Below are positions 5,410 through 53,452 of a stretch of DNA of 64,000 nucleotides, piece by piece. The translations under genes were made by a program, and so were the position numbers. The stretch lies in the NCBI GenBank assembly GCA_030390025.1, contig CM059427.1:8184001-8248000 (forward strand), written 5' to 3'. A model generated the notes under the pieces. The model did no database searches, was not told where the DNA came from, and saw only the letters and a program-made list of their open reading frames with translations. Numbering within the stretch: the stretch's first letter is position 1; the number at the start of each line of letters is the position of its first letter. The DNA comes from Squalus acanthias. Taxonomy: Eukaryota.

Positions 5410-6191
5410 GTATTCATTTGAAATATCCTCCTATTTCTACTCTGACTAGCACATGGCACTGGTAGCAATCCTGAGATTACTACCTTTGAGGTCCTATTTT
5501 TTAATTTACCTCCTAACTCCCTATATTCTGCTTTTAGGACCTCATCCCCTTTTTTACCTATATCGTTGGTGCCTATGTGCACCACGACAGCTGGCTGTTC
5601 ACCCTCCCCATCCAAAATGTTCTGTAGCCGCTCTGATACGTCCTTGACCCTTGCACCAGGGAGGCAACACACCATCCTGGAGTCTCGGTTGCGGCCGCAG
5701 AAACGCCAATCTATTCCCCTTACAATTGAGTCCCCTATCACTATAGCTATTCCACTCTTTTTCCTCCTAGCCTGTGCAGCAGAACCACCCATGGTGCCAG
5801 GAAGTTGGCTGCTGCTGCCTTCCCCTGATCAGTCATCCCCCCCAACAGTATTCAAAGTGGTATATCTGTTTGAGAGGGGGATGTCCACAGGGGACCCCTG
5901 CACTACCTGCCTGCACCTCTTACTCTGTCTGGTGGTCACCCATTTACTTCCTGCCTGTGCACCCTTTGCATGCGGTGTGACCAACTCTCTAAACGTGCTA
6001 TCCACGAGGTTCTCAGCATCGCGAATGCTCCAATATGCATCCATCCGCAGCTCCAGCGCCACAATGCGGTCTGTCAGTAGCTGCAGCTGGATACACTTCC
6101 CGCACACATGGATGTCAGGGACACCGGAATGGTCCCTGATTTCCCACATCGAGCAGGAGGAGCATAACATGGGGCTGGTCTGTCCTGTCAT
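5241..6191 (-). pseudogene. CR1 ORF1: zinc finger/leucine zipper + SGNH esterase, one in-frame TGA at 5829-5831
   Basis: CxxC...CxxC N-terminus (5829..6191) in frame with GDSIVR...HIGTND...DGLHL esterase (5241..5792). Confidence 0.9.
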
Positions 6192-6492
6192 GACTTACCC
6201 TTTAATTAATTGAACTTAAATTAAATCAAATCAATACCACCAATTACACTCAATTAAATGATATACTCAAGGTCCCTTGTTTACTAGCACTAGAAACTAT
6301 ATCCACAAAATTAAGACCTTCTAAACTTTATAAATTATGAAACTTAACTGTCAAACTATGGAGTAGTATAAATACTTAGCTAGCCATACTCACCCAATCA
6401 GCTGCTCCCTCCTGCCCGCGTCACGTTTTGAATCGTGACGTGGCTCTGGAACGCCGCCGCCGGTCTGAGATTGGTATGCCTGTGAAAAAAAA

Positions 6493-6655
6493 GCCCGCGA
6501 AAGTGAGTTCAAATACTCACCGGACCTCCGGTCTCGTCGCTCCCGACACCAGCCTGTGAATGAAAAGCCCGCGAAAGTGAGTTCAAATACTCACTGGACC
6601 TCCGGTCTCGTCGCTCCCGACACCAGCCTGTAAATGAAAAGCCCGCGAAAGTGAG
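6493..6655. repeat. 74-bp tandem repeat (2 units + partial) at the CR1 5' end
   Basis: gcccgcgaaagtgag recurs at 6493, 6567 and 6641. Confidence 0.9.
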
Positions 6656-6657
6656 AG

Positions 6658-7487
6658 CAGGCTGGAGGAGAACCTGTATATTGGAACAGACTGGAGGAGA
6701 ATCTGTATATTGGTACAGACTGGAGGAGTACCCATATATTGGAACAGACAGGAGGAGTACCTGTATAATGGAGCAGACTGGAGGAGTACCTGTATATTGG
6801 AACAGACTGGAGGTGTACCTGTATATTGGAACAGACAGGGGCAGTACCTGTATATTGGAACAGACTGGAGGTGAATCTGTCTATTGGAACAGACTGGAGG
6901 TGAATCTGTATATTGCAACAGACTGGAGGAGTACCTGTATATTGGAACAGACTGGAGGTGAATCTGTATATTGGAACAGGCTAGAGGTGAATCTGTATAT
7001 TGGAACAGGCTAGAGGTGTACCTGTATATTGGAACAGACTGGAGGAGTACCTGTATATTGGAACAGACTGGAGGTGTACCTGTATATTGGAACAGACTGG
7101 AGGTGTACCTGTATATTGGAACAGACTGGAGGAGAATCAATATATTGGAACAGGCTAGAGGTGAATCTGTATATTGGAACAGGCTAGAGGAGTACCTGTA
7201 TATTGGAACAGACTGGAGGAGAATCTGTATATTGGAACAGACTGGAGGAGTATCTGTATATTGGAACAGACTGGAGGAGTACCTGTATATTGGAACAGAC
7301 TGGAGGTGTACCTGTATATTGGAACAGACTGGAGGAGTCCCTGTATATTGGAACAGACTGGAGGAGTCCCTGTATATTGGAACAGACTGGAGGAGTCCCT
7401 GTATATTGGAACAGACTGGAGGAGAATCGGTATATTGTAGCAGACTGGAGGAGTACCTGTATATTCGAGCACACTGGAGGAGTACCT
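6658..7487. repeat. 29-bp minisatellite, right block (copied at 9936-10765 and 13214-14043)
   Basis: Same unit as 1356-2089. Confidence 0.97.
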
Positions 7488-7500
7488 AGCTGTATGTGTC

Positions 7501-7928
7501 AGTCATGATTCAGTGTTAGCACTCTTGCCTCTGATTCAGACGATCGTGCGTTCAAACCCCACTCCAGGGTCTCGGCTAACACTTATTTGAGGTAGTGCCG
7601 CACTGTCGAATATGGAATTTTTTGGAGGAGACGTTAAACCAAGGTTCCGTCCGCCCTGCAAGTAAAGGATCCCATGGCAGTAGTTGAAGAATTGCAGGGG
7701 AGATCTCCCAATGTCTTGTCCAATGTTTATCTCTCAACCAACATCAATAAAACAGTTTAATTGATCATTCATCTTATTGCTGCCTGTGGGATCTTGCTGT
7801 GCACAAATTAGCTGCGACGTTTCCCTATATTACAACAGTAACCACAAAAGTAATTTAATTTGCTGTGAAGCGTTTTGCTACTTCCTGATGCAATGAAAGG
7901 CGCTATATAAATGGAAGTTTCTTTTTTT
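7501..7928 (+). mobile_element. tRNA-head DeuSINE (SacSINE1/AmnSINE1-like); copies at 10779-11206 and 14057-14484
   Basis: A/B-box-like head, gagacgttaaacc...gatcccatggca Deu-domain-like core, tail gaaaggcgctatataaat; family name is from recall, not a search. Confidence 0.75.
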
Positions 7929-8963
7929 ACAATAACAATTGGGAACAGTCAACTTTATTTCCCCTCAAGGCCCTGCATGTAGCAAGGATATCAGTGCAGT
8001 TGTCTTCTTGTTATCACCATCTGCTGCTCCACTGTTTCAACAAGTATTCCTGCTTCCTTGTATGTGTGTGTGTGTGCTGTATTAAGTTATGCAAGTTTTA
8101 CAGGCATCTGATCATAATTTAGACACATTGTCGATGGTTCTCGATTGCTCGCACAGCTTGCCATACAGATTAACTTGTATATTGTTCGCAAGATCTTAGG
8201 ATATAGAGAAATTGAAGCACACTTGCAAGCTACCACTTTCCATGAATATGGATAGACGCTAAATATAATTTGTTTCTGCACATCTATACAGTGAAACTGC
8301 CTCAGAAAATGAGGCAGCCAAACCCACACTGATATGGTTCAAAATGCAGTTATTTTCCATGAGGGGAGAGTTACTGCCCTGGAGGGATAGGCTTCGATGG
8401 ACTAAATGGCCCCTTCACAATCCAGACTTTGTTTTAAATGTAATCAATGATTGTGCACTGTCTCCTACAGTCAAGCTTTCTATCACTTAACCACGACAAC
8501 TTAATTCATTTAATCTTCTCTCCTCCACTTTTCAACCATGGTGCTGTGCTGCACCATGGGCCTTGGCCCTTTAGCTGGGTGTCTCAATAAAATGGAAAAG
8601 TGATCGAGCGCCTATGGTGAAAGTGACTGCAGAGAGGCATATGCTCTATCAAAGTGAGTAGTTCCACTCTACTTGCTGTAGCGCAAAGATTTCCCTGGTG
8701 AAAAACATGGCAGTTTCTTTCCAAGGTGTCACAGCCTCTAAGGCCTAACATAATCACAGGCTGCTCTGTTTTAGTGTACATTAGTTCAGGTGCAACAGGA
8801 CCCAAAGTCATATTTCTGATGTTTTATGGAGATTTTTTAAATTTCTCCTCACTGAGACCTGCCATGCAATGCAATTCTGTATCTTTGAATGCATTTTATG
8901 ACAACAAAATGATTTGCATTAAAAATTGAATAAATTACACAATCGCATTTTCTTAAACATGCT

Positions 8964-9246
8964 GGCCCGGAATTTCCTGTGAATTTGCACCCAAAGACAT
9001 GCGCACAGGCTTCAAACTTTCATGCTCATGCATCAAGCGGGACTTAAAGAAGAAATATGGCATCAGTTCCGCACTTCCCTTGAACCCCGATTGTTTACGG
9101 TGATTCCCACTTGTACTCCGCTGGTTTCACATTCCGACATATGCAAATGAGATTCCCAGGAAATTTGGGCGTACCTCACCGACAGGAAGATCGCCGTAAC
9201 TTTCAGCCTAATTTGCCGGTTGCACTGTTTCAGGAAATTCTGGATC
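8964..9246. mobile_element. Old Harbinger-type MITE (copies at 12242-12524 and 15520-15802)
   Basis: Imperfect TIRs ggcccggaatttcctg / caggaaattctggatc. Confidence 0.6.
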
Positions 9247-12200
9247 GCTACTTCTTTGCTGTGATTGGAGTATCTTGTTCTTTCTTCATGCACCCTTTAT
9301 TTCTCCAATACTACTAAAATGTTTGTTGATCTTTCAGTATTCAGTTCTAAAGAAGGGCTCTACCATAAACATTCACTTGTCTTTTCTGTCTACAGATGCT
9401 GACTTACCGTCTTGTGTACTTCTAGCATTTGCAGTTTTCTTTTCCATTTTATTTGTATTGTTTTTCTTTTGTTTAAAGACAGAAACAGATTTAAAAAAGA
9501 ACATTGGGAAGAAGAGGCAGTAGAAGCAGCCTGTAAATAAAGAGGCCCATCAACATCAATAAGATTAAAAGTGTCAGCACCAATCCTGTTAGTCGGCCCT
9601 TCAGATCACTTGGTGGAGCTATGAATGGTAGCATCCCTGAGCTGCGTGGAGGATGGTAGCTGACTGCAGACCCAATCAGCTGCTCCCTCCTGCCCGCGTC
9701 ACGTTTTGAATCGTGACGTGGCTCTGGAACGCCGCCGCCGGTCTGAGATTGGTATGCCTGTGAAAAAAAAGCCCGCGAAAGTGAGTTCAAATACTCACCG
9801 GACCTCCGGTCTCGTCGCTCCCGACACCAGCCTGTGAATGAAAAGCCCGCGAAAGTGAGTTCAAATACTCACTGGACCTCCGGTCTCGTCGCTCCCGACA
9901 CCAGCCTGTAAATGAAAAGCCCGCGAAAGTGAGAGCAGGCTGGAGGAGAACCTGTATATTGGAACAGACTGGAGGAGAATCTGTATATTGGTACAGACTG
10001 GAGGAGTACCCATATATTGGAACAGACAGGAGGAGTACCTGTATAATGGAGCAGACTGGAGGAGTACCTGTATATTGGAACAGACTGGAGGTGTACCTGT
10101 ATATTGGAACAGACAGGGGCAGTACCTGTATATTGGAACAGACTGGAGGTGAATCTGTCTATTGGAACAGACTGGAGGTGAATCTGTATATTGCAACAGA
10201 CTGGAGGAGTACCTGTATATTGGAACAGACTGGAGGTGAATCTGTATATTGGAACAGGCTAGAGGTGAATCTGTATATTGGAACAGGCTAGAGGTGTACC
10301 TGTATATTGGAACAGACTGGAGGAGTACCTGTATATTGGAACAGACTGGAGGTGTACCTGTATATTGGAACAGACTGGAGGTGTACCTGTATATTGGAAC
10401 AGACTGGAGGAGAATCAATATATTGGAACAGGCTAGAGGTGAATCTGTATATTGGAACAGGCTAGAGGAGTACCTGTATATTGGAACAGACTGGAGGAGA
10501 ATCTGTATATTGGAACAGACTGGAGGAGTATCTGTATATTGGAACAGACTGGAGGAGTACCTGTATATTGGAACAGACTGGAGGTGTACCTGTATATTGG
10601 AACAGACTGGAGGAGTCCCTGTATATTGGAACAGACTGGAGGAGTCCCTGTATATTGGAACAGACTGGAGGAGTCCCTGTATATTGGAACAGACTGGAGG
10701 AGAATCGGTATATTGTAGCAGACTGGAGGAGTACCTGTATATTCGAGCACACTGGAGGAGTACCTAGCTGTATGTGTCAGTCATGATTCAGTGTTAGCAC
10801 TCTTGCCTCTGATTCAGACGATCGTGCGTTCAAACCCCACTCCAGGGTCTCGGCTAACACTTATTTGAGGTAGTGCCGCACTGTCGAATATGGAATTTTT
10901 TGGAGGAGACGTTAAACCAAGGTTCCGTCCGCCCTGCAAGTAAAGGATCCCATGGCAGTAGTTGAAGAATTGCAGGGGAGATCTCCCAATGTCTTGTCCA
11001 ATGTTTATCTCTCAACCAACATCAATAAAACAGTTTAATTGATCATTCATCTTATTGCTGCCTGTGGGATCTTGCTGTGCACAAATTAGCTGCGACGTTT
11101 CCCTATATTACAACAGTAACCACAAAAGTAATTTAATTTGCTGTGAAGCGTTTTGCTACTTCCTGATGCAATGAAAGGCGCTATATAAATGGAAGTTTCT
11201 TTTTTTACAATAACAATTGGGAACAGTCAACTTTATTTCCCCTCAAGGCCCTGCATGTAGCAAGGATATCAGTGCAGTTGTCTTCTTGTTATCACCATCT
11301 GCTGCTCCACTGTTTCAACAAGTATTCCTGCTTCCTTGTATGTGTGTGTGTGTGCTGTATTAAGTTATGCAAGTTTTACAGGCATCTGATCATAATTTAG
11401 ACACATTGTCGATGGTTCTCGATTGCTCGCACAGCTTGCCATACAGATTAACTTGTATATTGTTCGCAAGATCTTAGGATATAGAGAAATTGAAGCACAC
11501 TTGCAAGCTACCACTTTCCATGAATATGGATAGACGCTAAATATAATTTGTTTCTGCACATCTATACAGTGAAACTGCCTCAGAAAATGAGGCAGCCAAA
11601 CCCACACTGATATGGTTCAAAATGCAGTTATTTTCCATGAGGGGAGAGTTACTGCCCTGGAGGGATAGGCTTCGATGGACTAAATGGCCCCTTCACAATC
11701 CAGACTTTGTTTTAAATGTAATCAATGATTGTGCACTGTCTCCTACAGTCAAGCTTTCTATCACTTAACCACGACAACTTAATTCATTTAATCTTCTCTC
11801 CTCCACTTTTCAACCATGGTGCTGTGCTGCACCATGGGCCTTGGCCCTTTAGCTGGGTGTCTCAATAAAATGGAAAAGTGATCGAGCGCCTATGGTGAAA
11901 GTGACTGCAGAGAGGCATATGCTCTATCAAAGTGAGTAGTTCCACTCTACTTGCTGTAGCGCAAAGATTTCCCTGGTGAAAAACATGGCAGTTTCTTTCC
12001 AAGGTGTCACAGCCTCTAAGGCCTAACATAATCACAGGCTGCTCTGTTTTAGTGTACATTAGTTCAGGTGCAACAGGACCCAAAGTCATATTTCTGATGT
12101 TTTATGGAGATTTTTTAAATTTCTCCTCACTGAGACCTGCCATGCAATGCAATTCTGTATCTTTGAATGCATTTTATGACAACAAAATGATTTGCATTAA

Positions 12201-15200
12201 AAATTGAATAAATTACACAATCGCATTTTCTTAAACATGCTGGCCCGGAATTTCCTGTGAATTTGCACCCAAAGACATGCGCACAGGCTTCAAACTTTCA
12301 TGCTCATGCATCAAGCGGGACTTAAAGAAGAAATATGGCATCAGTTCCGCACTTCCCTTGAACCCCGATTGTTTACGGTGATTCCCACTTGTACTCCGCT
12401 GGTTTCACATTCCGACATATGCAAATGAGATTCCCAGGAAATTTGGGCGTACCTCACCGACAGGAAGATCGCCGTAACTTTCAGCCTAATTTGCCGGTTG
12501 CACTGTTTCAGGAAATTCTGGATCGCTACTTCTTTGCTGTGATTGGAGTATCTTGTTCTTTCTTCATGCACCCTTTATTTCTCCAATACTACTAAAATGT
12601 TTGTTGATCTTTCAGTATTCAGTTCTAAAGAAGGGCTCTACCATAAACATTCACTTGTCTTTTCTGTCTACAGATGCTGACTTACCGTCTTGTGTACTTC
12701 TAGCATTTGCAGTTTTCTTTTCCATTTTATTTGTATTGTTTTTCTTTTGTTTAAAGACAGAAACAGATTTAAAAAAGAACATTGGGAAGAAGAGGCAGTA
12801 GAAGCAGCCTGTAAATAAAGAGGCCCATCAACATCAATAAGATTAAAAGTGTCAGCACCAATCCTGTTAGTCGGCCCTTCAGATCACTTGGTGGAGCTAT
12901 GAATGGTAGCATCCCTGAGCTGCGTGGAGGATGGTAGCTGACTGCAGACCCAATCAGCTGCTCCCTCCTGCCCGCGTCACGTTTTGAATCGTGACGTGGC
13001 TCTGGAACGCCGCCGCCGGTCTGAGATTGGTATGCCTGTGAAAAAAAAGCCCGCGAAAGTGAGTTCAAATACTCACCGGACCTCCGGTCTCGTCGCTCCC
13101 GACACCAGCCTGTGAATGAAAAGCCCGCGAAAGTGAGTTCAAATACTCACTGGACCTCCGGTCTCGTCGCTCCCGACACCAGCCTGTAAATGAAAAGCCC
13201 GCGAAAGTGAGAGCAGGCTGGAGGAGAACCTGTATATTGGAACAGACTGGAGGAGAATCTGTATATTGGTACAGACTGGAGGAGTACCCATATATTGGAA
13301 CAGACAGGAGGAGTACCTGTATAATGGAGCAGACTGGAGGAGTACCTGTATATTGGAACAGACTGGAGGTGTACCTGTATATTGGAACAGACAGGGGCAG
13401 TACCTGTATATTGGAACAGACTGGAGGTGAATCTGTCTATTGGAACAGACTGGAGGTGAATCTGTATATTGCAACAGACTGGAGGAGTACCTGTATATTG
13501 GAACAGACTGGAGGTGAATCTGTATATTGGAACAGGCTAGAGGTGAATCTGTATATTGGAACAGGCTAGAGGTGTACCTGTATATTGGAACAGACTGGAG
13601 GAGTACCTGTATATTGGAACAGACTGGAGGTGTACCTGTATATTGGAACAGACTGGAGGTGTACCTGTATATTGGAACAGACTGGAGGAGAATCAATATA
13701 TTGGAACAGGCTAGAGGTGAATCTGTATATTGGAACAGGCTAGAGGAGTACCTGTATATTGGAACAGACTGGAGGAGAATCTGTATATTGGAACAGACTG
13801 GAGGAGTATCTGTATATTGGAACAGACTGGAGGAGTACCTGTATATTGGAACAGACTGGAGGTGTACCTGTATATTGGAACAGACTGGAGGAGTCCCTGT
13901 ATATTGGAACAGACTGGAGGAGTCCCTGTATATTGGAACAGACTGGAGGAGTCCCTGTATATTGGAACAGACTGGAGGAGAATCGGTATATTGTAGCAGA
14001 CTGGAGGAGTACCTGTATATTCGAGCACACTGGAGGAGTACCTAGCTGTATGTGTCAGTCATGATTCAGTGTTAGCACTCTTGCCTCTGATTCAGACGAT
14101 CGTGCGTTCAAACCCCACTCCAGGGTCTCGGCTAACACTTATTTGAGGTAGTGCCGCACTGTCGAATATGGAATTTTTTGGAGGAGACGTTAAACCAAGG
14201 TTCCGTCCGCCCTGCAAGTAAAGGATCCCATGGCAGTAGTTGAAGAATTGCAGGGGAGATCTCCCAATGTCTTGTCCAATGTTTATCTCTCAACCAACAT
14301 CAGTAAAACAGTTTAATTGATCATTTATCTTATTGCTGCCTGTGGGATCTTGCTGTGCACAAATTAGCTGCGACGTTTCCCTATATTACAACAGTAACCA
14401 CAAAAGTAATTTAATTTGCTGTGAAGCGTTTTGCTACTTCCTGATGCAATGAAAGGCGCTATATAAATGGAAGTTTCTTTTTTTACAATAACAATTGGGA
14501 ACAGTCAACTTTATTTCCCCTCAAGGCCCTGCATGTAGCAAGGATATCAGTGCAGTTGTCTTCTTGTTATCACCATCTGCTGCTCCACTGTTTCAACAAG
14601 TATTCCTGCTTCCTTGTATGTGTGTGTGTGTGCTGTATTAAGTTATGCAAGTTTTACAGGCATCTGATCATAATTTAGACACATTGTCGATGGTTCTCGA
14701 TTGCTCGCACAGCCTGCCATACAGATTAACTTGTATATTGTTCGCAAGATCTTAGGATATAGAGAAATTGAAGCACACTTGCAAGCTACCACTTTCCATG
14801 AATATGGATAGACGCTAAATATAATTTGTTTCTGCACATCTATACAGTGAAACTGCCTCAGAAAATGAGGCAGCCAAACCCACACTGATATGGTTCAAAA
14901 TGCAGTTATTTTCCATGAGGGGAGAGTTACTGCCCTGGAGGGATAGGCTTCGATGGACTAAATGGCCCCTTCACAATCCAGACTTTGTTTTAAATGTAAT
15001 CAATGATTGTGTACTGTCTCCTGCAGTCAAGCTTTCTATCACTTAACCACGACAACTTAATTCATTTAATCTTCTCTCCTCCACTTTTCAACCATGGTGC
15101 TGTGCTGCACCATGGGCCTTGGCCCTTTAGCTGGGTGTCTCAATAAAATGGAAAAGTGATCGAGCGCCTATGGTGAAAGTGACTGCAGAGAGGCATATGC

Positions 15201-15832
15201 TCTATCAAAGTGAGTAGTTCCACTCTACTTGCTGTAGCGCAAAGATTTCCCTGGTGAAAAACATGGCAGTTTCTTTCCAAGGTGTCACAGCCTCTAAGGC
15301 CTAACATAATCACAGGCTGCTCTGTTTTAGTGTACATTAGTTCAGGTGCAACAGGACCCAAAGTCATATTTCTGATGTTTTATGGAGATTTTTTAAATTT
15401 CTCCTCACTGAGACCTGCCATGCAATGCAATTCTGTATCTTTGAATGCATTTTATGACAACAAAATGATTTGCATTAAAAATTGAATAAATTACACAATC
15501 GCATTTTCTTAAACATGCTGGCCCGGAATTTCCTGTGAATTTGCACCCAAAGACATGCGCACAGGCTTCAAACTTTCATGCTCATGCATCAAGCGGGATT
15601 TAAAGAAGAAATATGGCATCAGTTCCGCACTTCCCTTGAACCCCGATTGTTTACGGTGATTCCCACTTGTACTCCACTGGTTTCACATTCCGACATATGC
15701 AAATGAGATTCCCAGGAAATTTGGGCGTACCTCACCGACAGGAAGATCGCCGTAACTTTCAGCCTAATTTGCCGGTTGCACTGTTTCAGGAAATTCTGGA
15801 TCGCTACTTCTTTGCTGTGATTGGAGTATCTT

Positions 15833-16598: not shown

Positions 16599-17613
16599 TA
16601 TCTTGTTCTTTCTTCATGCACCCTTTATTTCTCCAATACTACTAAAATGTTTGTTGATCTTTCAGTATTCAGTTCTAAAGAAGGGCTCTACCATAAACAT
16701 TCACTTGTCTTTTCTGTCTACAGATGCTGACTTACCGTCTTGTGTACTTCTAGCATTTGCAGTTTTCTTTTCCATTTTATTTGTATTGTTTTTCTTTTGT
16801 TTAAAGACAGAAACAGATTTAAAAAAGAACATTGGGAAGAAGAGGCAGTAGAAGCAGCCTGTAAATAAAGAGGCCCAGCAACATCAATAAGATTAAAAGT
16901 GTCAGCACCAATCCTGTTAGTCGGCCCTTCAGATCACTTGGTGGAGCTATGAATGGTAGCATCCCTGAGCTGCGTGGAGGATGGTAGCTGACTGCAGACC
17001 AGTGCTGAAAGTCAGTTGATCAGAGAGCCATATTCAGATGACAGTGTCACTTGGCCAAGGTCTGCAACATTGGCCTTGCTGATATTACAGTTCTTGTGGA
17101 CAATCAAAATCCTGGCCAACATTTAGAGATAGTTCATTAATTTCCAACAGATTTTGGGATCCTACTTTCTGAACTTATTATATCCCAATCATTTCATCCT
17201 CTAATACGTGTAGCTATTTTATATGTTGATCGCGTAATAACCTTCTTAAAAAAATTCAATCAAAATTTAAAGCATAAGCTTTCTAAACATAACTTTTATT
17301 GATCCGCTTTGGTTGGGTCTTAATTCTCCACTCTTTATCCCCATGCACATTTGATGGAGCTGCTCACCAGGATACTCGTGAGGAGTTCCTGGTACTTGCT
17401 GTCTGCATCAGTGGAATTCAAACCTGTCGTCTTTACTCCTTGTGACCAACTTGATAATCTGACACCTGAGCCAAGCAGATTTACGGGTGTAAAACGGGCG
17501 CAATCAGACCAAATTTTGGGTACCAACATTCCACGCCTAAAGGAATTGATTTTCTTTATCTGATTGAACTACTGTGCGTTTCCAGCATTTTCTGTGTTTA
17601 TTTCAAATATCTA

Positions 17614-18506
17614 GGGGTAGAAATTAGGTCGCGCCCCATTTGGGGCGCAAATATCGTCTGGACGCAAATATTAGCGCCTGGCGCTAATTATCGGCACTGA
17701 CTGGAAACTTCACTTTTACCGCCCCGGGAGGTGAGTGGAGCGCTAAATCAGGCGCTGCACACCTGTCTTAAGGCGCAAAGGCCAAGGAGTGAGGCGCTAA
17801 CTCAGAGCGCTGGCGAAGCTCATGTAATGTCAGTCAGCAATGGAACACACACACAATGGCACGGGCCAGTTCTTAAAGGGGATGGTTAATCTTGCTTTCC
17901 ATCCACATCCTGTTCATTGCAGCCTTGAATCTCGGCCTGGAGAGACTTGCACATCAAATGTGCTGGAAAGAACAATGGAGAGTACCAGGCAAAGAGCTCA
18001 GAGTGCAGCTCCCACAGTCTCTGCTAAATCGATACAAGGAATGGCAAATCAAAATGAACCTGCAAAGTGCTGCTCAGTACCCAAAACTCTTTCACACAAC
18101 GTTGAATCTCTCCAGAAGTCTCTCCCTCTCTCTCTCAGAATGCGTAGTTCAAAAATGCCACCAACAATAAAAGACAGGAAGAGGTCCCCTTTAAATAGCG
18201 CCACCCCCAGCCCCACAGCGATTGATAGCGTTCCAGTCTTCTGGTCGTTGGATGCGCCAGGCGGTAAGGCAGGGGGCGCCACTCAATTTCCGCTCCGGGG
18301 CGCCACAAGGGCGTTGCACCATGGAATGACGTCACAATCTGCGCGCGCAGGTGGTCGCAGCGGTAAGTTTTAGCACCGCCGCACAATCTCAAGTTAAGTT
18401 CTCGAGCGGCGCAAACATCGCTGCGCCCGGGCGTTAGCGGCTTTGCGCCCCATTAGCGCCCTCTTAAGGCGCTAATGGGAGGCGCAACCAACTGAATTTT
18501 TACCCC
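17614..18506. mobile_element. Harbinger non-autonomous element, subfamily A
   Basis: TIRs GGGGTARAAATT, TSD CTA, subterminal (TA)GCGCC repeats; inverted homolog at 25318-26214. Confidence 0.9.
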
Positions 18507-19213
18507 CTAGTATTTGTGGTTTCTCTCTTTATCTGATCAGTGTTGATGTTTGACAATAGGTTGATCACGGAGTTCTATAATTATCCTAGTAGAATGTGTG
18601 CTATTTATTTTAGTGATTGTTGCTTCTCTTGTCCCCATGGTTTCTGTATTACTTTGCTTATCTGCTAATTTCTATTGTCCATATTTGACATTAGTACTTA
18701 CTGTTAAATTTTGCACATTTGTTAACTAGGTCTTGTTGAGGGTAATATTTTCTTCAGTTTCAATTAGTATGGAGCACCGGGTTTTCTACTCTTTGATGGT
18801 TTGAGGGCATCCAGTTATACCGTTCTGTAATCTTTTATTTCTGACAACCACTATAACTCTTCCCTGGCAAATGAAACCATACCAATACCCTCTGGTCTTC
18901 TGTTAAGTTTGTATAAATTGCCTTCTTCTTTGTAAAGAATCCGTTTTCTATTCCATTTCGATTCCAGTACAGTATGATTTTCTGCTAGGTTTTTGCAATC
19001 ATTTTACATTCACTGTGTAACTCAAGCACTCTGTTGCTAAAAGGCTGTGCTTTGCACTTATACACATTCTTTGATCTGTCTTACCAATTGCTTCAGAATG
19101 GGTGACTGGATCTTCCTCCGGCTTATTTATACCAGGCCAATCATTTACTTTTTCCTCTCCCATCTGTACTGCGCGTAAGCTGCTGTCAGTACGTTGTGTA
19201 ATGCAATGTCTGG

Positions 19214-20292
19214 GGGGGAAAAATTCGGTTGGTTAGCGCTTCCCGTTAGCACCTCCGGGGGGCGCTAACGGGGCGCTAGGAAATTAGTGCCCGAGCGCAG
19301 TGATTTTAGCGCCGCTCGCAAAATTGACCAGTCGTTTTGCGGCGGGGCTAAACACTATCGCCATGATCTCCTGCGCCCGCAGATCGTGACGTCAGTCGAG
19401 TGTGCAACGCCCCGGTAGCGCCCCAGACCGGATATTGAGTCGCGCCCCCTGCCTTAGCGCCTGCCACTAGGAACGACAGGTCGAGGGGAACGTTTTCAAG
19501 TCAGGAAGGGGCTGGGCGAGCACTATTTAAAGGCGAGTGCTTCCTGCCTTTTCTCGCTAGCAGAACCTTTGGTTTTAACGCTGACCTAAGGAGTTTTGGC
19601 CCTCAGCACCACTTTTGAGGTTCCTAAGCGCCAAGCTCTTTCCCTGGGCCTATCCATTAGTGCTTCCAACACAATTGCTTTTGAGGTCTCTCCAGGCCGA
19701 GATTCAAGGCTGCAATGAGCAGGGTGTAGCTGGCCAGCAAGATGGCCCCTCCCCTTTAAGAACTGGACGGTGCCAGTCTGTCTGGCTTCCATGGTAACGG
19801 TCATCGCTTGAGCTTTGGTAGTGTTTAAGGTAGCGCCTCGCTCCCTGACGTTTGCGCCTTAAGTGAGATTTAGCGCTCAAATCACCTCCAGGAGCGGTAG
19901 ATGCGAATTTTGCAGTCGGAGATGATAATTAGCGCCGGGCGCTAAAATTTGCGCCCGGCTGATATTAGCGCCCCAAAATGGGCGATACTGAAATTTCCCC
20001 CCATTATATACACACAGATATACATACAAATACACACAGATATATAGATATACACACGCGCGCACACACGTATATACATACACACATATAAATACGCATG
20101 TAAATATAGAAACACTCATGCACATATACACACATACATATGTATGTGGGTGATGCATCTCCTATCAGAACTTGTTGAGCAATATGACCTTTATTCCACT
20201 TTCTCTTTTCCTCAAGTCTTTTCCTTTACCTCATCATTTTCTATTTACGTTTTTTAAGAAATATATTTTCAAAAATACCGAATTTTTCCCCC
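19214..20292. mobile_element. Composite Harbinger MITE: subfamily B (19214-20002) + captured flank + outer TIR
   Basis: Perfect 16-bp TIR gggggaaaaattcggt (19214-19229) / accgaatttttccccc (20277-20292), TSD TGG; an inner TIR ends at 20002. Confidence 0.85.
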
Positions 20293-20394
20293 TGGGTGTC
20301 CACTCAGACAAGTTTTAATGAATCAATTTCTAATCTTTGTCAATAGCATGGGCGTGATGACAATCAGTAACAGTAAAACTGCTACTATTTCTTT

Positions 20395-20462
20395 AAATAA
20401 ATTTAAAAATAATTTCTCAAATAAAACTGTTGGACTATAACCTGGTGTTGTGCGACCTCTCA
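20395..20462 (+). mobile_element. Short Penelope-like 3' terminal fragment
   Basis: aaataaaactgttggactataacctggtgttgtgcgac terminus shared with the 27020, 31680 and 34681 copies; 11-bp TSD ACTATTTCTTT. Confidence 0.8.
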
Positions 20463-20779
20463 ACTATTTCTTTGAACAGGGTCTTCATTTAAATGTAGAG
20501 GCCGCAACATCGTAATGAAGAAGGAATGATCGGTAAACCTGTTGAAAACACTATCATATTCTAATCCGTTCAGCAGGGCCTAATGCATTCAGAGAAGGGG
20601 TTGATCAGTGATCAGCCATGGTAATGGATTCCAAGACACCTTAACTTCACTCATGCACATAGCAGATAAATCTCATTGTCATGTTATATTAGGAAATTTG
20701 AGCCTTGTCTGACGCTCCAGTCAAACTGACCTTTGATCATTAATCACACAAATTTCTTTAGCTACCGCTTCCTGTGGAC

Positions 20780-23521: not shown

Positions 23522-24283
23522 GGGCCCGTAATTTCCGATAGGAGGCTTCCTGCATGCGGAGGCCTCCGATTTGGAAAAAAATCTACAGACTTACCTGAGG
23601 GCTCCCGAGGTCCGGACACTTCCGATCCTGGGCCTCTCCAAACTCGAAATGTGCAGGGCCCACGTATCCCAGAGGCGCATGCGGTTCGCAAGCGTCCCTG
23701 GGATCACGTGGGCCATGGGGAGCCAATCAAAGAAGGGAATCTCCCTTCATACACTTGACAAATAGACCTGTGAAATATATGAATGGAGATCATCTCCAAA
23801 AACACTGTAAAACATTAAATAAACTTTTTTATTAAATCACATTTTTAAAATTAGTTGACATTACAATAAATTAAATATTTTTTAAAAAATTAAATTTTTT
23901 GAAAAAAATAATTAAATCTTTTTACGGGGCTAAAAATAAACTTACCTTTTTTAAAGTATTTTAAAATGAAAAATGAGTAAAAACATTTTTTTTTTACTTT
24001 TTTCAAATCTTATGCTGGTAAAAGCAGGCCTTACACCTGCTTTTACCAGGCGTAAGATTTCTAAAGGTTTTTTGTGGGCGGAGGTTCTCCAGAAAGCGGA
24101 ACTCTTCCCCCCACAGAGGCCCATCTCTAGGGCAGGCGTTCGATCTGTCAAGAGCATTCTTGACAGATCAGAAATGCCGGTTTTCAGCGCATGCGCTTGG
24201 CATGCCTGAAACAGGCATTTCCAATGTCCCTACGGGTGTGTACACAGCGCGTACCCAACCGTAGGCATCGGAATATCCGGGCC
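23522..24283. mobile_element. Harbinger-type MITE, family C
   Basis: Imperfect TIRs ggcccgtaatttccgat / atcggaatatccgggcc, flanks aat/att, AT-rich core; related to 39540-40284 and 50472-52358. Confidence 0.8.
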
Positions 24284-24439: not shown

Positions 24440-25190
24440 GGGGGAAAAATTGTGTATCGCCCATTTTGGGGCGCTAATATCGGCTGGGCGCAAAGTTTAG
24501 CCCGTATCGCCCCGGAGGTGATTTGAGCGCTAAATCAAGCGCTACACACCTCTCTTAAGGCACAAACGTCAGGGAGCAAGGCGCTACCTCAGAATGCTAC
24601 TGAAACTCAGGCGATGCCAGTTACCATGGAAGCCAGACAGACTGGCGCCATCCAGTTCTTAAAGAGGAGGGGCCAGCTACACCCTGCTCCATTGCAGCCT
24701 TGAATCTCGGCCTGGAGACCTCAAAAGCAATTGTGTTGGAAGCACTAATGGATAGGCCCAGGGAAAGAGCTCGGCGCTTAGGAACCTCAAAAGTGGTGCT
24801 GAGGTCCAAAACTTCTTAGGAGAGCGTTAAAACCAAAAATATTGCCGACAAGAAAAGGCAGGAAGCGCCCACCTTTAAATAGCGCTCCCCCAGCCCCTTC
24901 CCGACTTGAAAACGTTCCCCTCTACCTGTCGTTCCTAGTGGCAGGCGCTAAGGCAGGGGGCGCGACTCAATATCCAGTCCGGGGTGCTACCGGGACGTTA
25001 TATGCTCGACTGATGTCACGATCTGCGGGCGCAGGAGATCGTGGTGGTAGTGTTTAGCGCCGCCGCAAAACGACTGATCAATTTCGCGAGCGGCGCTAAA
25101 ATCGCCACGTTCGGGCGCTAAGTTCCTAGCGCCCAGTTAGCGCCCCCCAGAGGCGCAACGGGAGGCGCTAACCAACAGAATTTTTCTCCC
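24440..25190. mobile_element. Harbinger MITE, subfamily B
   Basis: TIRs GGGGGAAAAATT / GGGAGAAAAATT, TSD TAG. Confidence 0.9.
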
Positions 25191-25317
25191 TAGGGGTGTA
25201 ACAACCATAAGTACGTCTCCTTTTATCAAAAGCTGTGGACTTTGGGAAAGGAAATCAGTGTTTGATCTTAGAAAACAGCACCTTGGGGTAAAGAATCTAA
25301 AATGCACTAGAAACATA

Positions 25318-26214
25318 GGGGGGAAAATTCAGTTGGTTGCGCCTCTCATTAGCGCCTTAAGAGGGCGCTAATGGGGCACAAAGCAACTAGCGCCCGGGCA
25401 CGGCAATGTTTGCGCCGCTCGCGCAATTAACTAGACATTTTGCGGCGGCGCTAAACACTACCACCACGATCTCCTGCGCCGGCAGATCATGACGTCAGTC
25501 GAGTGTGCAACGCCCCGGTAGCGCCCCGGAGCGGATATTGAGTGGCGCCCCCTGCCTTACCGCCTGCCGTTAGCAACGACAGGTGGAGGGGAGCGTTTTG
25601 CAGTCAGGAAGGGACTGGGGGAGCGCTATTTAAAGGCGACCGCTTCCTGCCTTTTTTTGTTGGTGACATTTTTGAACCACGCATTCTGAGAGAGAGAGAG
25701 AGAGAGAGACTTCTGGAGAGATTCAACGCTGTGTGAAGGAGTTTTGGGTACTGAGCAGCACTTTGCAGGTTCATTTTGATTTGCCATTCCTTGTATCGAT
25801 TTAGAAGAGATTGTGGGGGTTGCACTCTGAGCTCTTTCCCTGGTACTCTCCATTGTTCTTTCTAGCAGATTTGATGTACAGGTCTGTCCAGGCCGAGATT
25901 CAAGGCTGCAATGAGCAGGATGTGGATGGAAAGCAAGATCAACCCTCCCCTTTAAGAAGTGGCCGGCGCCATTGTGTCTGTGTTCCATTGCTGACTGACA
26001 TCACATGAGCTTCGCCAGCGCTCTGAGTTAGCGCCTCGCTCCTCGGCCTTTGCGCCTTAAGACAGATGTGTAGCGCCTGATTTAGCGCTCCAATCACTTC
26101 CAGGGGCGATAAAAGTCAAGTTTGCAGTCGGAGGTGATAATTAGCGCCAGGTGCTAATCTTTGCGCCCGGCCGATAATTGCGCACCAAATGGGGCGATAC
26201 TGAATTTCTCCCCC
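25318..26214. mobile_element. Harbinger non-autonomous element, subfamily A (inverted relative to 17614-18506)
   Basis: TIRs GGGGGGAAAATT / GGGGGAGAAATT, TSD ATA. Confidence 0.9.
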
Positions 26215-43200: not shown

Positions 43201-43897
43201 CAGGTATGACCTTACGAAAGAGTTGTCATTGCGGTTTATAATCAAATGCCCTAGAGAAGCATCCCAGAAATTGGTTAGTCTCTTGACAACAGCCTCTTAT
43301 TGATTAGATACTTTCAATATATGTTCATGTGTGCATATTTCATGTTTCATATCACTATCCCGCATTAGTTTACAATTATCCACATCAAATCGCAGCTGCT
43401 ATTTTTAGCTCATTTATCTAATTTGGGGGAGAACTTGGGCACCTTAACGCCTGCAGTTAGCGCCTCCTGGGGGCACTACCGGCTTTGCGACCGGGCGCTG
43501 CGATACTACCGACGCCCGCGAAAAAGGCGGAGGTTTGCGGTGGCGGTAACCACTAGCGCCACAATCTCCTGCGGCCGGAGATCGTGACGTCATCAGGGTG
43601 CGCAGCGCCCCGGTAGCGCCCCGTTCTGAAATTCACTCTCGCCGCCTGCTTGAGCGCCTGCCGTTAGCAACGACAGGTAGAGGAGGCGGTATGCAGTTGG
43701 ATGAGCGCTGGAGGAAGTGCTATATAAAGGCGTCAACTTCCGGTTATTTTTGTCAGCACAGAATGCTGCCTTGCCAGTTTGGCACAAGCAGACAGGCATT
43801 TTGAGCGATTTCAGCGTTTTCAATTTGAAAGAATATTCTGCCTCAGAAAAATTTATCACTTTCATTTCGGTGAGATTTTAAACATTTCCATAATTTA

Positions 43898-45051
43898 ATG
43901 GGGGCTGTACTGGCACTGGACCTCGCCCTCCAGCGTCAACGTCGGAGGCAGCGGAGCCAGAGACAAACATTGGAAAACATGGCCAGAGAGAGGAGGGCCA
44001 ACAGGGCTCTCAACAGGAGGCCTTACCCTCCCAGGGTATTCCGGCAGCATTTCTCCTACATCAATCTCACTGAGGAGCAGTGTCTTAGAAGGCTCCGTTT
44101 CACCAAGGACGCGGTCGCAGAGCTCTGCCACCTCCTGCAGCCAGACCTCAAGCCTGACATCAGGAGCACCACGTCTCTCTCCGTGGCAGTCAAGGTCACC
44201 GTCGCCCTCAATTTCTACGCAAGTGGATCCTTCCAGTGTGAAACAGGAGACATATTTAACATATCGCAGTTCGCCGTCCATTGCTGCATCCGTGAGGTCA
44301 CAGGTGCTCTCTACAGAAGGAGAAGGGACTACATTTCCTTCCCTATCACCAGAGAGAAGCAGCGCGAGCATGCATGTGGTTTTGCCAGGATAGCGGGCTT
44401 CCCCATGGTGCAGGGTGCCATTGACAGCACCCACATCGCTTTGCGGGCACCTCATATCAATCCTGAGGTATTCTGTAACCGCAAAGGCTACCGCTCACTT
44501 AATGTGCAGTTGGTGTGCGACCACACACAGCGCATCTTCACCGTCAATGCCCGCTATCCTGGCAGCAGCCATTAGCCTCCATCCGGCACCAGACTCTGCC
44601 ACCTCTGTTCCAGCCATCACATCAAGCTAACGGATGGCTGCTGGGATACAAGGGCTGTCCGCTCTCCACCTGGCTCATGACTCTCCTCCGCAACACCAGC
44701 ACTCGTGCCCAGCACTCATACAATGAGAGCCAAACTGCCACCAGGAACATCATCGAGCAGACCATCGGGGTGCTCAAGCAACGGTTCCGCTGTCTTGACC
44801 ATTCAGGAGGAGCCCTCCAGTACTCGGCTGCGTGGGTGTACATTTTTGTCGTCATCTGCTGCATGCTGCACAACTTGGCCATATTGAGGGCACAGCCATT
44901 ACCACCAGGCATAGCCGCACCACCTCAGGAGGACGAGGACAAGGACAAGGAGGAACAGGAGCACGAACAACAGCAACGGAGGAGGCAGCCACTCCATTGG
45001 CCTTGTGGAAGGGCGGCCCGTGACCGCCTGATCAGACTGCGGTTCCAATGA
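43898..45051 (+). pseudogene. Harbinger DDE transposase, frameshift near 44575, second catalytic Asp lost (GYKGC)
   Basis: ORFs 43898..44575 (GAIDSTHI) and 44515..45051 (RNIIEQTIGVLKQRFRCL). Confidence 0.92.
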
Positions 45052-45216
45052 ATTCGAGGCCACTTCCCGATTGCTCATCCAGTCCCCATCAGTCCATCAA
45101 TTTCTCATTCAATACCACACCCCAAAGCTGAAATGAAACACAGCACCATTTCTGCAACATTCCAATAATAGATTTATCCACAAGCAATAACCACATATAT
45201 ACAACAACAATATTAA

Positions 45217-47100
45217 CTAATGACCCTTGTGCAAACCCTTAATTGCCCTCTTTACAGTGCCTTTTCCTAATCTAGTGCTCCTACGTAGTGTCTCTCCAGT
45301 GGCTGCAGCAGGGCTGGTGGAAGGCTGCTGAGTGTTGGTGCCAGAAACTACAGATGGCCTTGCAGGATGCCCTCGAGCAGCTCTGGGCCTGGAAGGCCCG
45401 GCTGTACACTGCGCCACCTCAGGATGGGCGGCGGCAGTCTGGGCTGGCTGGATGTCAGGCAGCGGCAAAGACAATGGTGGAGTGGCAGTGATGGGAGCAG
45501 AAATGCTGTCATCCTGAGAGAGGACAGCAGGTTCCTGCTCCATTGGCACACTGCCACTCCCCCGGGGCAGCACCTCAGCATCCCTAGCAATTTGCTGCAG
45601 CACAGATTGCTGGCCTGCTGCGACACTGTGAGATCCCCGGTGGACTGTGGTGGACCCAGCAACGATGGCAGCAGTCAGAGCTTTCGTGGCATCAATCTGA
45701 GACTGCATGAGAGCAGTCTGAGACTGGATAGCATCAACCATTGACTGCATTACAGCACTACAACGTTGCGTGGCTTCCGCCTGTGCTGCAATGGATGCTG
45801 CCATAACACGCAGCATGAGGTCTGGGTCCCCACGGTCGCTCAGGGAGTCCACCATCCTTTGCAGACTGCCAAGAATGGGCTCCATGGTATGCGCCGAGTT
45901 CTGTGCACTGTTTGAAGGCGGACTCCTCCACGCTCCTTACCATTGCCGACAGGCTCTCGGGCACCTTTGTCATTGCACCCATCATCTCGGTGTGCATGCC
46001 CATCACCCTTCTTGTGAATGCCTCCCCATCGAGTTCCTCATCTGAGTCCTGCACAGCAGAACTCGCGCGCGAACTCACCCTCCGGGGAGCTGGCTCCCGA
46101 GCTACCCTTTCCCCCTGGCCTTGCTGCTGCCCGCTCATGCCTGGTGCCTCACCCTGTACAGACCCCTCTACTAAACTTGCCTCTAAAGATCGCGTAGTGC
46201 CAGTATCTGAAGTCGTGCCTGCGGGTGAGAGATGCAGTGATGTGGTGCTTTGCTCCTCCTCATCTCCCGCCTCACTCTCACTGGGAGGCTCAGGGACAGG
46301 CTGGTCATCAGGTTGCTGATTCTCTGAAAGCATAAAGGCACAATACTCGCTTTAAGGTGAGGGCAGGGGGGCAGGAAGGGAGCAGGGAATGCAGACAGTA
46401 TAATGAGCTGGAAAGTGGGAAAGGCTTGTGGTGTGAGGGGGAAGTGGGATGAGAGAAGGAGAGGTGCTGAAGATACCGTTGTTACCCCCAAGGGGGTCGA
46501 CGTTGCCGAGGGCCTCGGTGCCCACCACCTGCTGCCCAATGAGGCGCAGCACTTGCTCCAGCAGGTTTGAAAGCTGCTAGAGCTGCGCATCACCCCCGCC
46601 TGTTCTCTGGTGCTCCCTCCTATTGTGGGCCATCTTGGCCTGCAAGAGAAATGAATGTGTATGAGTCAGAGTCCAGCTATGTGTTTGGTAGATATGCCTG
46701 TCGTAGTTGAATAGCTGAGATTGTAGGCAAGGCGTGAGATGTGGCTGTGAGTTTGAGTAGGTGCAGATGCTTGGCGGGTGAGTGGTGGGGGTGTGGTGGT
46801 TTGTGCAGTGTGTACAGACTGAGGTTCAGATGCTGGTATGTAGGACCTGTTGAAGCATGTACTCACCTTGACCACCCGAGTGAGGTCATTGAAATTCCTC
46901 CGGCACTGTGTCAGGCTGCGTTCCACCACACTACTGGCCGAGACCTCCTGGGCCACTTGCCTCCACATTGCCCTGAAGGCCTGGGGCAATGGCCTCTTTC
47001 CAGTGTCCGGGAACAGCACTGCTCTCCTTTGCTCTGCTCCCGCGACCAACGCCTCGTCCATGAAATGGCGAGCTCTCTCCCTGGGAGTGGGATCAGCCAT
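45217..47100 (-). pseudogene. Harbinger Myb/SANT-like DNA-binding protein; predicted exons 47100-46867, 46639-46477, 46323-45217
   Basis: RERARHF...W..VA..V...RS..QCRRNFNDL trihelix-like motif; GT/AG sites at the predicted boundaries; frameshifts in exons 2-3. Confidence 0.8.
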
Positions 47101-47799
47101 CACGATCAAGGGATTGAGTTGCTTGCAGGTCGCCCTCACAGCAAGCACGGCTGATAATGAGGATCTGCACAATGATGCAACCTCCCCTTTAAGAGCTGCA
47201 AGGAGCCAGTGTGAACTATCATCCCCGATTGCATTGCACCTAAAATTCATTATCGATCTGCTGGTAGCGCCCCTGTAGCACCCTAATGCGGTCATTAGCG
47301 CTTGATTTAGCGCTCCAGCTCTCTCCTGGAGCGCTAACAGCCAATTTAGGGGAACCTCAGATTCATTTGCATCTGGCGCTAATTTTTCATAAATTCAAAA
47401 TTTAGCGCCCCAAACAGGGCGATAATGAATTTCTCCCCCTTTATCTTTTGAATGTTATCAATCTCCCTTACATTGGTCACCTGACCATATAGCTTGGGGT
47501 CATTAGCAAATTTTATAATATTACCAGTTTACCCTTCACACTAATTAAAAACAGTGTAAACGTCAAAAGACCCACAATAAACCCCGGCAGGCTTCCCCTC
47601 ACGAACCCTCAGTCAGAGCCCTGTTCATCGATCGTCACCTTTTACTTTCCACTGCCAAGGTCATTTTCAACCCATTTAGCTAATTTGCCATTCATTCTAT
47701 GCATTTTTTTTCTTTCAAAGCCTCAGATGTGGAGCTTTGCGAAGCTCTTGCTGAAAATTCAATGATATCTATTGGATAGCCATCCTCTTAATAATCTTA

Positions 47800-48229
47800 T
47801 GAGATACGATAGCAAAATACTGCGGATGCTGGAAATCCGAAATAACAACAGAAAACGCTGGAAAAACTCAGCAGGCCAGGCAGCATCCTTGGAGAGAGAA
47901 AGAGAGTTAACGTTTCAGGTCGATGACCTTTCATCAGAACTGGGAAGAGCCGGAAATCAAATAGATTTAAGGCCAGGGTAAAGCTGGGAAAAGGGGGAGG
48001 GGATAAAGGAACAAAGGGGGAGATGAAGAGACATTAAGAGACATTAAGAGATATGCAAGGCTAGAGGTGGTGTTAATGTGACAGATTAAGGCTGAATGAA
48101 GTGTGAAATCCATTGGCAGAATGAAGGACAGCTGCCAGCTTCTAGGAGGAAAAAAAAAGGTGGGGGGGATAAATAAAAGGGTGGAAAAAATAAAATATAA
48201 ATGTGATTGGAGCTGAGGTTATGATCTAA
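47800..48229 (-). mobile_element. Penelope-like 3' fragment, second family
   Basis: Near-identical to 51009-51435; candidate TSD AATCTTA. Confidence 0.85.
47905..47941 (-). ncRNA. Minimal type I hammerhead ribozyme motif
   Basis: AGUU-CUGAUGA-A-AGGUC/GACCU-GAAA-CGUU-AACU. Confidence 0.75.
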
Positions 48230-52132: not shown

Positions 52133-52648
52133 CTCTTCAATACTTACCCTCCCGTAGAAACCTGAAAAAAACCTAAGTTTGCTGCGTGCGCACAGCCTCT
52201 ACCACGCACGCGGTTCACCTAGGAACCGCCCCCTTCACCAGACCGGAAGTTCCGGTTTCCCGCGCATGCGCAGTGCATGCAGGAAACCGGCAATTCAGGA
52301 CGCCTTACGGGTGAGTACACAGCGCGTACTCACCCGGCAAGGGCCGAATTTCTGGCCCATTATGTAGGAAATGTATTTTTGAAAATATATTTCTTAAAAA
52401 ACTTAAATAGAAAATGACAAGGTAAAGGAAAAGACTTGAGAAAAAGAGAAAGTGGAATAAAGGTCATATTGCTCAACAAGTTCTGATAGGAGATGCATCA
52501 CCCACATACATACGTGTGTGTGTATATGTGCATGTGTGTTTGTATATTTACATGCGTATTTATATGTGTGTATGTATATACGTGTGTGCGCGCGTGTGTA
52601 TATCTATATATCTGTGTGTATTTGTATGTATATCTGTGTGTATATAAT

Positions 52649-53452
52649 GGGGGAGATATTCAGTATCACCCATTTTGGGGCGTTAATATTGGCCGGGTGC
52701 AAATATTAGCGCCCGGTGTTAATTATCGCCTCCAACTGCAAAATTTGCCTCTATCGCCCCTGGAGGTGATTTGAGTGCTGAATCAGGCGCTACACACCTC
52801 TCTTAAGGCGCAAACGTCAGGGAGTGAGGCGCTACCGCAGAACACTACCAAAGCTCAGGCGATGACCGTTACCATGGAAGCCAGACAGACTGGCGCCGTC
52901 CAGTTCTTAAAGGGGAGGGGCCATCTTGCTGGCCAGCCACACCCTGCTCATTGCAGCCTTGAATCTCAGCCTGGAGAGACCTCAAAAGCAATTGTGTTGG
53001 AAGCACTAATGGATAGGCCCAGGGAAAGAGCTCGGCGCTTAGGAACCTCAAAAGTGGTGCTGAGGGCCAAAACTCCTTAGGACAGCATTAAAACCGAAAA
53101 TGTTGTCGACAAGAAAAGGCAGGAAGCGTCCGGCTTTAAATAGCGTTTCTCCAGCCCCTTCCCGACTTGAAAACGTTCCCCTCTACCTGTCGTTCCTAGT
53201 GGCAGGCGCTAAGGCAGGGGGCGCGACTCAATATCCGGTCTGGGGCGCTACCGGGGCATTGCACGCTCGACTGATGTCACGATCTGCGGGCGCAGGAGAT
53301 CATGGCGGTAGTGTTTAGCACCGCCGCAAAACGACTGGTCAATTTCGCGAGCGGCGCTAAAATCGCCGTGCTCGGGCGCTAAGTTTCTAGCGCCCCGTTA
53401 GCGCCCCCCGGAGGCGCGAACGGGAGGCGCTAACCAACTGAATTTTCCCCCC
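52649..53452. mobile_element. Harbinger MITE, subfamily B
   Basis: TIRs GGGGGAGATATT / GGGGGGAAAATT, TSD AAT. Confidence 0.92.

Follow-up and report, generated by a model that had tools for sequence, protein, structure and literature searches.

In a 64,000-nucleotide stretch of Squalus acanthias DNA (the window), a non-autonomous Harbinger-like MITE (copy A) is followed at its right end by 276 bp copied from the flank of a sister MITE (copy B), which lies 32 kb away in inverted orientation, and the enlarged unit is closed by a third TIR (Table 1). The explanation that we hold, with moderate confidence, is that a resident MITE was broken or excised, that one of its ends copied the sister element past its terminus and that the new strand was rejoined by microhomology to a remnant of the old right end (gap filling), with one further event affecting the match between the two copies.

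Table 1. Coordinates of the three-TIR unit, its donor and related elements in the window.
Feature	Position	Strand	Remarks
Left TGG of the 3-bp target-site duplication	19211..19213	+	
Left TIR of recipient copy A, 16 bp	19214..19229	+	2/16 off donor B left TIR; equals outer TIR
MITE body of A, 789 bp, non-autonomous Harbinger-like	19214..20002	+	91.1% vs B; gaps of 14 bp and 1 bp
Divergent patch 1, A vs B	19514..19590	+	21/77 differ; non-CpG 12/61; surrounds TATA-like word
Inner right end, subterminal motif array (divergent patch 2 vs B)	19867..20002	+	21/136 differ; non-CpG 12/103
Inner right TIR	19987..20002	-	Mismatches: A left TIR 3, B right TIR 4, B left TIR 1; followed by ATT, not TGG
Captured flank, 276 bp, 31% G+C, first half CA/TA-rich	20003..20278	+	
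Microhomology ATAC, 4 bp, flank and family right end	20275..20278	+	
Outer right TIR, perfect inverted copy of 19214-19229	20277..20292	-	Without subterminal motifs behind
Right TGG of the duplication	20293..20295	+	
Donor flank	52373..52648	-	Followed by 14 bp of AT-rich DNA and an unrelated ISL2EU-like element; TIR absent where homology stops
Donor MITE B, 804 bp	52649..53452	-	Own 3-bp duplication AAT (+ strand) at 52646-52648 and 53453-53455
Full-length relative G, 4,015 bp	43425..47439	+	TTT duplication; broken DDE_Tnp_4 transposase; convergent Myb_DNA-bind_5 frame
Third copy C, same MITE subfamily (control)	24440..25190	-	
More distant family copy D (outgroup)	25318..26214	+	
More distant family copy F (outgroup)	17614..18506	-	

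The 1,079-bp unit (19214–20292) consists of the 789-bp MITE, the 276 bp of flank and 14 more bases that complete the outer TIR. It aligns with the donor at 91.6% identity over 1,082 columns (19214–20278 versus 53452–52373; blastn within the window), which bears out a preliminary description of the locus as an inverted copy of a MITE and its flank, closed by a perfect 16-bp TIR and surrounded by TGG. The shared stretch is real but ends at 20278 rather than at 20277 as first described, giving a flank of 276 bp. Likewise, the term 'inverted copy' applies cleanly to the flank, as 20003–20278 is the reverse complement of 52373–52648 with 8 of 276 positions different and no indels in an ungapped comparison (97.1% identity, equal length), whereas the MITE parts are 91.1% identical and their differences are clumped. 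The perfect inverted repeat (19214–19229 and 20277–20292) does not extend beyond its 16 bp. TGG is found on both outer sides of the unit and ATT after the inner TIR, so that the inner end has no matching duplication, as had been reported. The whole unit is present in one copy in the window, and its flank has no match there other than the donor (blastn, word size 7).

A fortuitous match between simple repeats, or a fault of assembly, can be regarded as a negligible alternative. The first half of the flank is indeed CA/TA-rich, and near-identical tandem and fold-back segments are found elsewhere in the window, but the 276-bp match has no gaps and extends into non-repetitive DNA; the copies differ by 3–9%, so they are not one sequence placed twice, and the 16-bp TIR has just two matches in the window at no more than one mismatch, against a chance mean of 0.01.

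The captured DNA contains no recognisable gene fragment and is likely non-coding. An Rfam search of 18900–20600 yielded no matches. A Pfam scan of 218 frames of the window (212 of the 309 listed, the others being in or beside recognised repeats, and 6 more) detected no domain (0/133 and 0/85 matched), short exons being liable to be missed.

The family was identified through relative G, in which DDE_Tnp_4 is detected in two frames (E-values 3.4e-7 and 2.2e-11) and Myb_DNA-bind_5 in another (E-value 2.3e-4; 21.5 bits, just below the 21.7 cut-off). Copy A is similar to G at both termini, over 273 bp on the left (71.8% identity) and 43 bp on the right (83.7%), which makes its family Harbinger-like, in agreement with the original assignment; G is likely kin of the elements that mobilised the MITEs. 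The family TIRs are about 16 bp long and begin with G. All six family duplications comprise 3 bp (TGG, ATT, CTA, ATA, TAG and TTT on the element strand, at positions 19211, 52646, 24437, 25315, 17611 and 43422); none of the six is TWA, none conforms to CWG or C-TNA-G, and one conforms to ANT. Six different non-TWA duplications represent relaxed target choice for a Harbinger-like family. As the TWA mark of the PIF/Harbinger group is absent (0/6), we file the family under the PHIS superfamily only.

Several other observations concern the family at large. Both TIRs of copy C share a private T at position 14 and both TIRs of copy F a private T at position 5, hinting at subfamilies with matched ends. 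Copies C and D stand back to back (24440–26214), their left ends 127 bp apart, so that together they make up an extended but imperfect inverted repeat. At 398–1327 and 55161–61243 are other transposase and Myb frames of Harbinger-like type, broken by a 29-bp satellite and LINE fragments. For the transposase frame at 401–955, shark proteins are the best 18 of the 120 matches listed, as expected of a shark-like host, and its DNA region is 72.8% identical to that of G; in BLASTP, the first transposase frame of G overlaps a named shark protein over just 30 residues (22/30 identical).

Copy B is likely the original site and the source of the flank in A, as the preliminary description had it. It carries its own AAT on both sides, and a chance duplication is unlikely because ATT makes up only 2.4% of the 3-mers in the window. 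An AT-alternating run passes uninterrupted across the insertion point, and all five other family elements terminate at the position of the inner TIR of A, each with a 3-bp duplication. The element part is bounded exactly by the TIR, which would rarely be expected of random truncation. The opposite view, that a longer, amplified element normally includes the 276 bp and that the 52-kb copy is a truncated version of it, could appeal to the A–B difference near the inner TIR, which exceeds that of a fresh copy. It is nevertheless very improbable: besides the common end point of the other five elements, the truncation would have to land exactly on the TIR boundary and next to a matching ATT, the AT-alternating run spans the insertion point, and the flank is absent from G.

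There is no cryptic TIR at the donor: where the homology ends, the 16-mer in register mismatches the TIR at 13 of 16 positions, in line with the earlier observation that the flank has no TIR there. This bears on end bypass, in which the transposase would have passed over the right TIR of B and acted at a cryptic end lying 276 bp farther downstream. Linkage of the donor to a family copy is indeed what that model predicts according to the survey of animal captures (PMC8277862). However, such an end was not found, the outer TIR is a genuine family end and the left TIR of A is not that of B, leaving end bypass largely refuted and scarcely tenable. We also considered the element at 52358, next to the donor, as the source of the outer TIR and rejected it: it belongs to another family, has the wrong orientation and shows at least 7 mismatches.

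The TIRs of A set it apart from B. The left and right TIRs differ at 3 of 16 positions in B, 2 in C, 2 in D, 3 in F and 5 in G, whereas the left and outer TIRs of A are identical; given the other family elements, the chance of a perfect pair is about 0.04–0.07. The left TIR of A differs from that of B at two positions, and both states are common to the outer TIR. Since the outer TIRs of A match each other and differ from the ends of B, the outer shell of A is not derived from B. The last join falls within ATAC (GTAT on the other strand), which is common to the flank and to the right-end type of the family; the preliminary description had placed it in a GTAT shared with the TIR type, and it is the right-end type that is concerned. 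The homology of the flank with the donor stops exactly at this microhomology. The 4-bp microhomology with this type is of a length reached by 1.4–2.7% of possible junctions, whereas the left-end type shares just 2 bp at the join, as do 12% of random junctions. The TIR and junction pattern would fit a resident element whose termini were kept in place while its interior was rewritten. The 4-bp microhomology, the nearby donor and the matched outer TIRs unlike those of the donor support the view that the capture bears marks of template-switch repair.

The divergence between A and B is clumped and fits a single copied tract poorly. In their MITE parts the two copies are 91.1% identical to each other and 89.8% and 90.5% identical, respectively, to copy C. 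Non-CpG differences between A and B number 20/515 in the body, 12/103 in the last 136 bp and 6/262 in the flank; the end differs from the flank with Fisher P = 0.0006, for a segment chosen after viewing the data, and scan tests gave P values of 0.019, 0.0002 and 0.027 for spans of 20, 60 and 100 sites. Identity changes abruptly at the border of TIR and flank, with 15 of 100 positions different in 19914–20013 and 1 of 100 in 20014–20113. Outside both patches, A–B divergence at non-CpG sites (8/454, 1.8%) is close to that of the flank (6/262, 2.3%) and about half that of A–C (16/440) or B–C (15/453). These like ages of body and flank suggest that the capture would have come soon after insertion. 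A single-age model with CpG correction predicts 15.8 differences in the flank, against 8 observed (P = 0.024; non-CpG Fisher P = 0.068), so a single age for body and flank appears strained, though by this test alone still tenable.

Comparison of A, B and C points to the right end of B as the altered part. In the last 97 columns of the three-way alignment, B is the odd one out 11 times, C 10 times and A 3 times, as against 16, 30 and 29 times, respectively, in the earlier columns (shift of B versus A, Fisher P = 0.006). At two sites the inner end of A has a state in common with C that is missing in B, D, F and G. The 10 columns in which C is odd may mean that this end is variable between master elements. 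In patch 1, private changes number 12 in A and 8 in B. A small strand-biased G-to-A cluster is seen in the right end of B. The patch at 19514–19590, with its TATA-like word, differs among all of A, B, C and D (11–21 of 77 positions) and is possibly an old transposase promoter region. We attempted to place a template-switch point using five aligned copies but claim none, as the shared-derived sites conflict (6 for A+B, 3 for A+C and 3 for B+C); all 6 A+B sites fall in CpG columns, one of them adjoining a gap.

The preliminary description had taken A for a single uninterrupted copy of the donor MITE and flank. This cannot be upheld, as the copy resembles its donor least in the 136 bp adjoining the inner TIR (21/136 different). 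One-tract copying predicts equal divergence of inner end and flank, and the observed inequality therefore calls for an extra event. The options would be a later conversion of the right end of B by an older copy, a third template, or a contribution from B limited to the flank; the simplest may be either the later conversion or a third template used during the repair. A conversion tract would stop at the TIR, because the homology ends there.

The following scenario would account for most of these features. A plain MITE would have inserted at 19214, creating the TGG duplication, and would later have suffered a break or an excision near its right terminus. Strand invasion by the end to the left of the break would have taken sister B, homologous and inverted at a distance of 32 kb, as template, and synthesis would have proceeded through the terminus of B and 276 bp into its flank; the copying itself is observed, and its place in the sequence of events is what we infer. 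Once past the long homology, the new strand appears to have joined a 14–18-bp remnant of the right end at the 4-bp microhomology; again, the junction is observed and the pathway proposed. A second event would have altered the match of the last 136 bp of B to A. The resulting three-TIR copy, similar to a Pack-TIR, would have arisen at its present site and has probably never transposed as a whole. Tan et al. expect a breakpoint near the terminus from excision-induced gap repair, not from internal breaks (PMC8277862), and animal Pack-TIRs are described in the same work as having nearby donors and microhomology. In mammalian cells, conversion tracts that end outside homology have been reported to be rejoined by microhomology or added bases and to show template switches (PMC5104497). 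Several findings speak against gap filling: the stretch just before the inner TIR, which would necessarily be donor-derived, is the least donor-like; the inner TIR differs from the right TIR of B at 4 of 16 positions; and TGG is the only one of the six duplications with a middle G. The two sites at which the inner end of A agrees with C, the 10 odd columns of C and the private changes of both copies in patch 1 also count against it.

Formation of the composite first and a jump second is an unlikely alternative. A neighbour fusion beside B, or FoSTeST (fork-stall template switch), would have built MITE, flank and end at the donor, and a 32-kb hop would then have made the TGG. A 3-bp duplication does frame the entire unit, local hopping and neighbour fusion have been described for Pack-PIF (PMC8903248), and FoSTeST is described in PMC8277862. 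However, the donor has no second family end: the best TIR match has 8 of 16 mismatches in the flank region and 7 of 16 inside the unrelated neighbour. Moreover, the left TIR of A equals the outer TIR, not the left TIR of B, and the outer end lacks the subterminal motifs, which correspond to a region reported to be bound by Harbinger Myb proteins (PMC4055405). The divergence of patch 2 is an equal problem for this scheme.

A still less probable alternative, which we rate as improbable, is that the cut right end of A primed synthesis on the flank of B, that the new right end was built by fold-back from the left TIR of A itself, and that the 1,079-bp unit was then inserted whole, producing the TGG, or resealed. 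End-primed transduction would explain, with no extra mutations, the sharp identity step at the border of TIR and flank, the C-like states of the inner end and the perfect pair of left and outer TIRs. On the other hand, it has only the 2 bp of microhomology with the left end, as against the 4 bp with the right-end type, it requires two switches and an exact run-off, and a right end of the outer type exists in the family (the right TIR of C). If true, a self-templated end would allow flank transduction in the absence of both a cryptic end and a second insertion.

Returning to gap filling, the TGG would predate the capture. This and the structure of the outer end leave the claim of a new mobile unit with three TIRs unsupported. 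One 7-mer is more enriched than any other in the ends of B, C, D, F and G, with 38 counts and a presence in 10 of 10 ends. With no more than one mismatch allowed, each of these elements has it 8 to 10 times in its final 300 bp; in A it is found 8 times within 170 bp of the inner TIR and not at all in the 290 bp of flank and outer TIR. This 7-mer is a candidate Myb binding site, Harbinger Myb proteins having been reported to bind subterminal regions (PMC4055405), and mPing mobility is affected by sequences beside and inside the TIRs (PMC9921582). With eight motifs near the inner end and none behind the outer one, the inner end appears to be the likelier transposition substrate, and the flank would probably not be carried along in a jump.

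The surroundings contain further repeats. A 3,278-bp unit is repeated in tandem about 2.9 times at 6392–15832 (99.8–99.9% identity), and a 402-bp piece (16599–17000) lies beyond a LINE fragment; this array may be either a very recent duplication or an assembly artefact. An open frame of 1,045 aa (2293–5430), which we take to be of the LINE reverse transcriptase type, has decayed relatives at 36.6–41.7 kb and 55.7–58.3 kb. Short local repeat pairs are 27021–27194/32086–32258 (95%), 31733–31941/35083–35291 (90%, inverted) and 22554–22712/24286–24433 (69%). Inside the ISL2EU-like neighbour of the donor lies a 1,063-bp fold-back (51070–52132, 99.2%, no spacer; total span 50995–52146), presumably Penelope-like although without a Pfam match. 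With a 14-bp direct repeat on either side (50995 and 52133) and a single copy (96%) at 47804–48232, the fold-back looks like an inverted retroelement insertion. No transposase for the ISL2EU-like TIR family was seen in the window. Copies of this neighbour at 50472–52358 and 23522–24283 are framed A-AT...AT-T, fitting the ISL2EU target of PMC4482050, and a partial third copy is at about 39567–40155.

The value of the locus is that donor and product are in one window with readable junctions, which makes it easy to follow how a TIR element captured sequence. Captures of this class, with a donor next to a same-family copy and a retained inner TIR, were filtered out of the main animal survey, and the present one belongs to a lineage that scored none there. 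Its weight is limited by its being one event with apparently non-coding cargo and no sign of amplification in the window, most of which is explained by a known repair route; it would matter more if the unit were multi-copy or the new end self-templated. Among the titles and openings of abstracts listed in a literature search whose scope excluded Repbase and most subscription journals, none describes such a capture by a shark Harbinger MITE.

Among known systems, the PIF/Harbinger group (Han et al., 2015, PMC4482050) shares short TIRs starting with G and 3-bp duplications. Its described marks include TIRs of less than 60 bp beginning with A or G (about 16 bp here), autonomous elements of about 4.1 kb (4,015 bp in G) and an autonomous partner with a DDE transposase and a Myb/SANT ORF, as seen in G; the TWA mark is the one absent (0/6). 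Plant Pack-TYPE and Pack-PIF elements (Gisby and Catoni, 2022, PMC8903248) likewise consist of Harbinger-type TIRs around chromosomal DNA, with donor and product within 100 kb, but the model given there needs two neighbouring insertions moved as one, whereas the donor of A has no second family end in this haplotype. The end bypass and gap filling of P elements, as presented in PMC8277862, resemble the present case in the capture of DNA near a transposon from nearby templates; unlike end bypass, no cryptic donor end is found here. The closest counterpart in repair studies is that of PMC5104497 (2016), with one-end homologous invasion, synthesis into DNA without second-end homology, microhomology rejoining and extra template switches. 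That work used a reporter and a sister-chromatid donor in mammalian cells, whereas here the donor is an inverted paralogue at a distance of 32 kb and the event is deduced from sequence.

For capture of this kind the preliminary description named precedents from plants, but novelty in vertebrates is not supported: Tan et al. (2021, PMC8277862) already list 21 PIF-Harbinger cases among 370 animal Pack-TIRs (3 in X. laevis, 4 in X. tropicalis and 14 in alligator), and in 16 of these 21 parent and product share one sequence. Most animal Pack-TIRs are described there as single-copy and ascribed to gap filling; the elephant shark, the only cartilaginous fish surveyed, had none. The pipeline removed parents with a TE within 100 bp, and the authors say that TE-linked cases were possibly missed. 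Copy A resembles these Pack-TIRs in its captured, apparently non-TE DNA of 100–5,000 bp, nearby parent, identity above 90% and microhomology at the join (4 bp), the mark of gap filling. Where at least 10 bp of the termini of the same element are called for on both sides, A has a perfect 16-bp pair and TGG; where the internal sequence should be 100–5,000 bp long, with a parent of at least 90% identity and 80–120% of the length, it is 276 bp, with a parent 97.1% identical and of equal length, and the match that should be uniquely best is unique within the 64-kb window. Unlike the parents retained by Tan et al., however, that of A has TEs within 100 bp, as B adjoins it and an ISL2EU-like element begins 14 bp beyond. 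A also differs from the Pack-TIRs described in that survey in having a same-family MITE next to the parent, an entry seemingly by long homology, an inner TIR left behind and a breakpoint 14–18 bp from the terminus, whereas the breakpoints of Tan et al. skew internal. Thus, A works like a Pack-TIR but would be excluded from their set, and it is distinguished from the known captures by the position of its donor next to a copy of the same family, by the inner TIR that it has kept and by its lineage.
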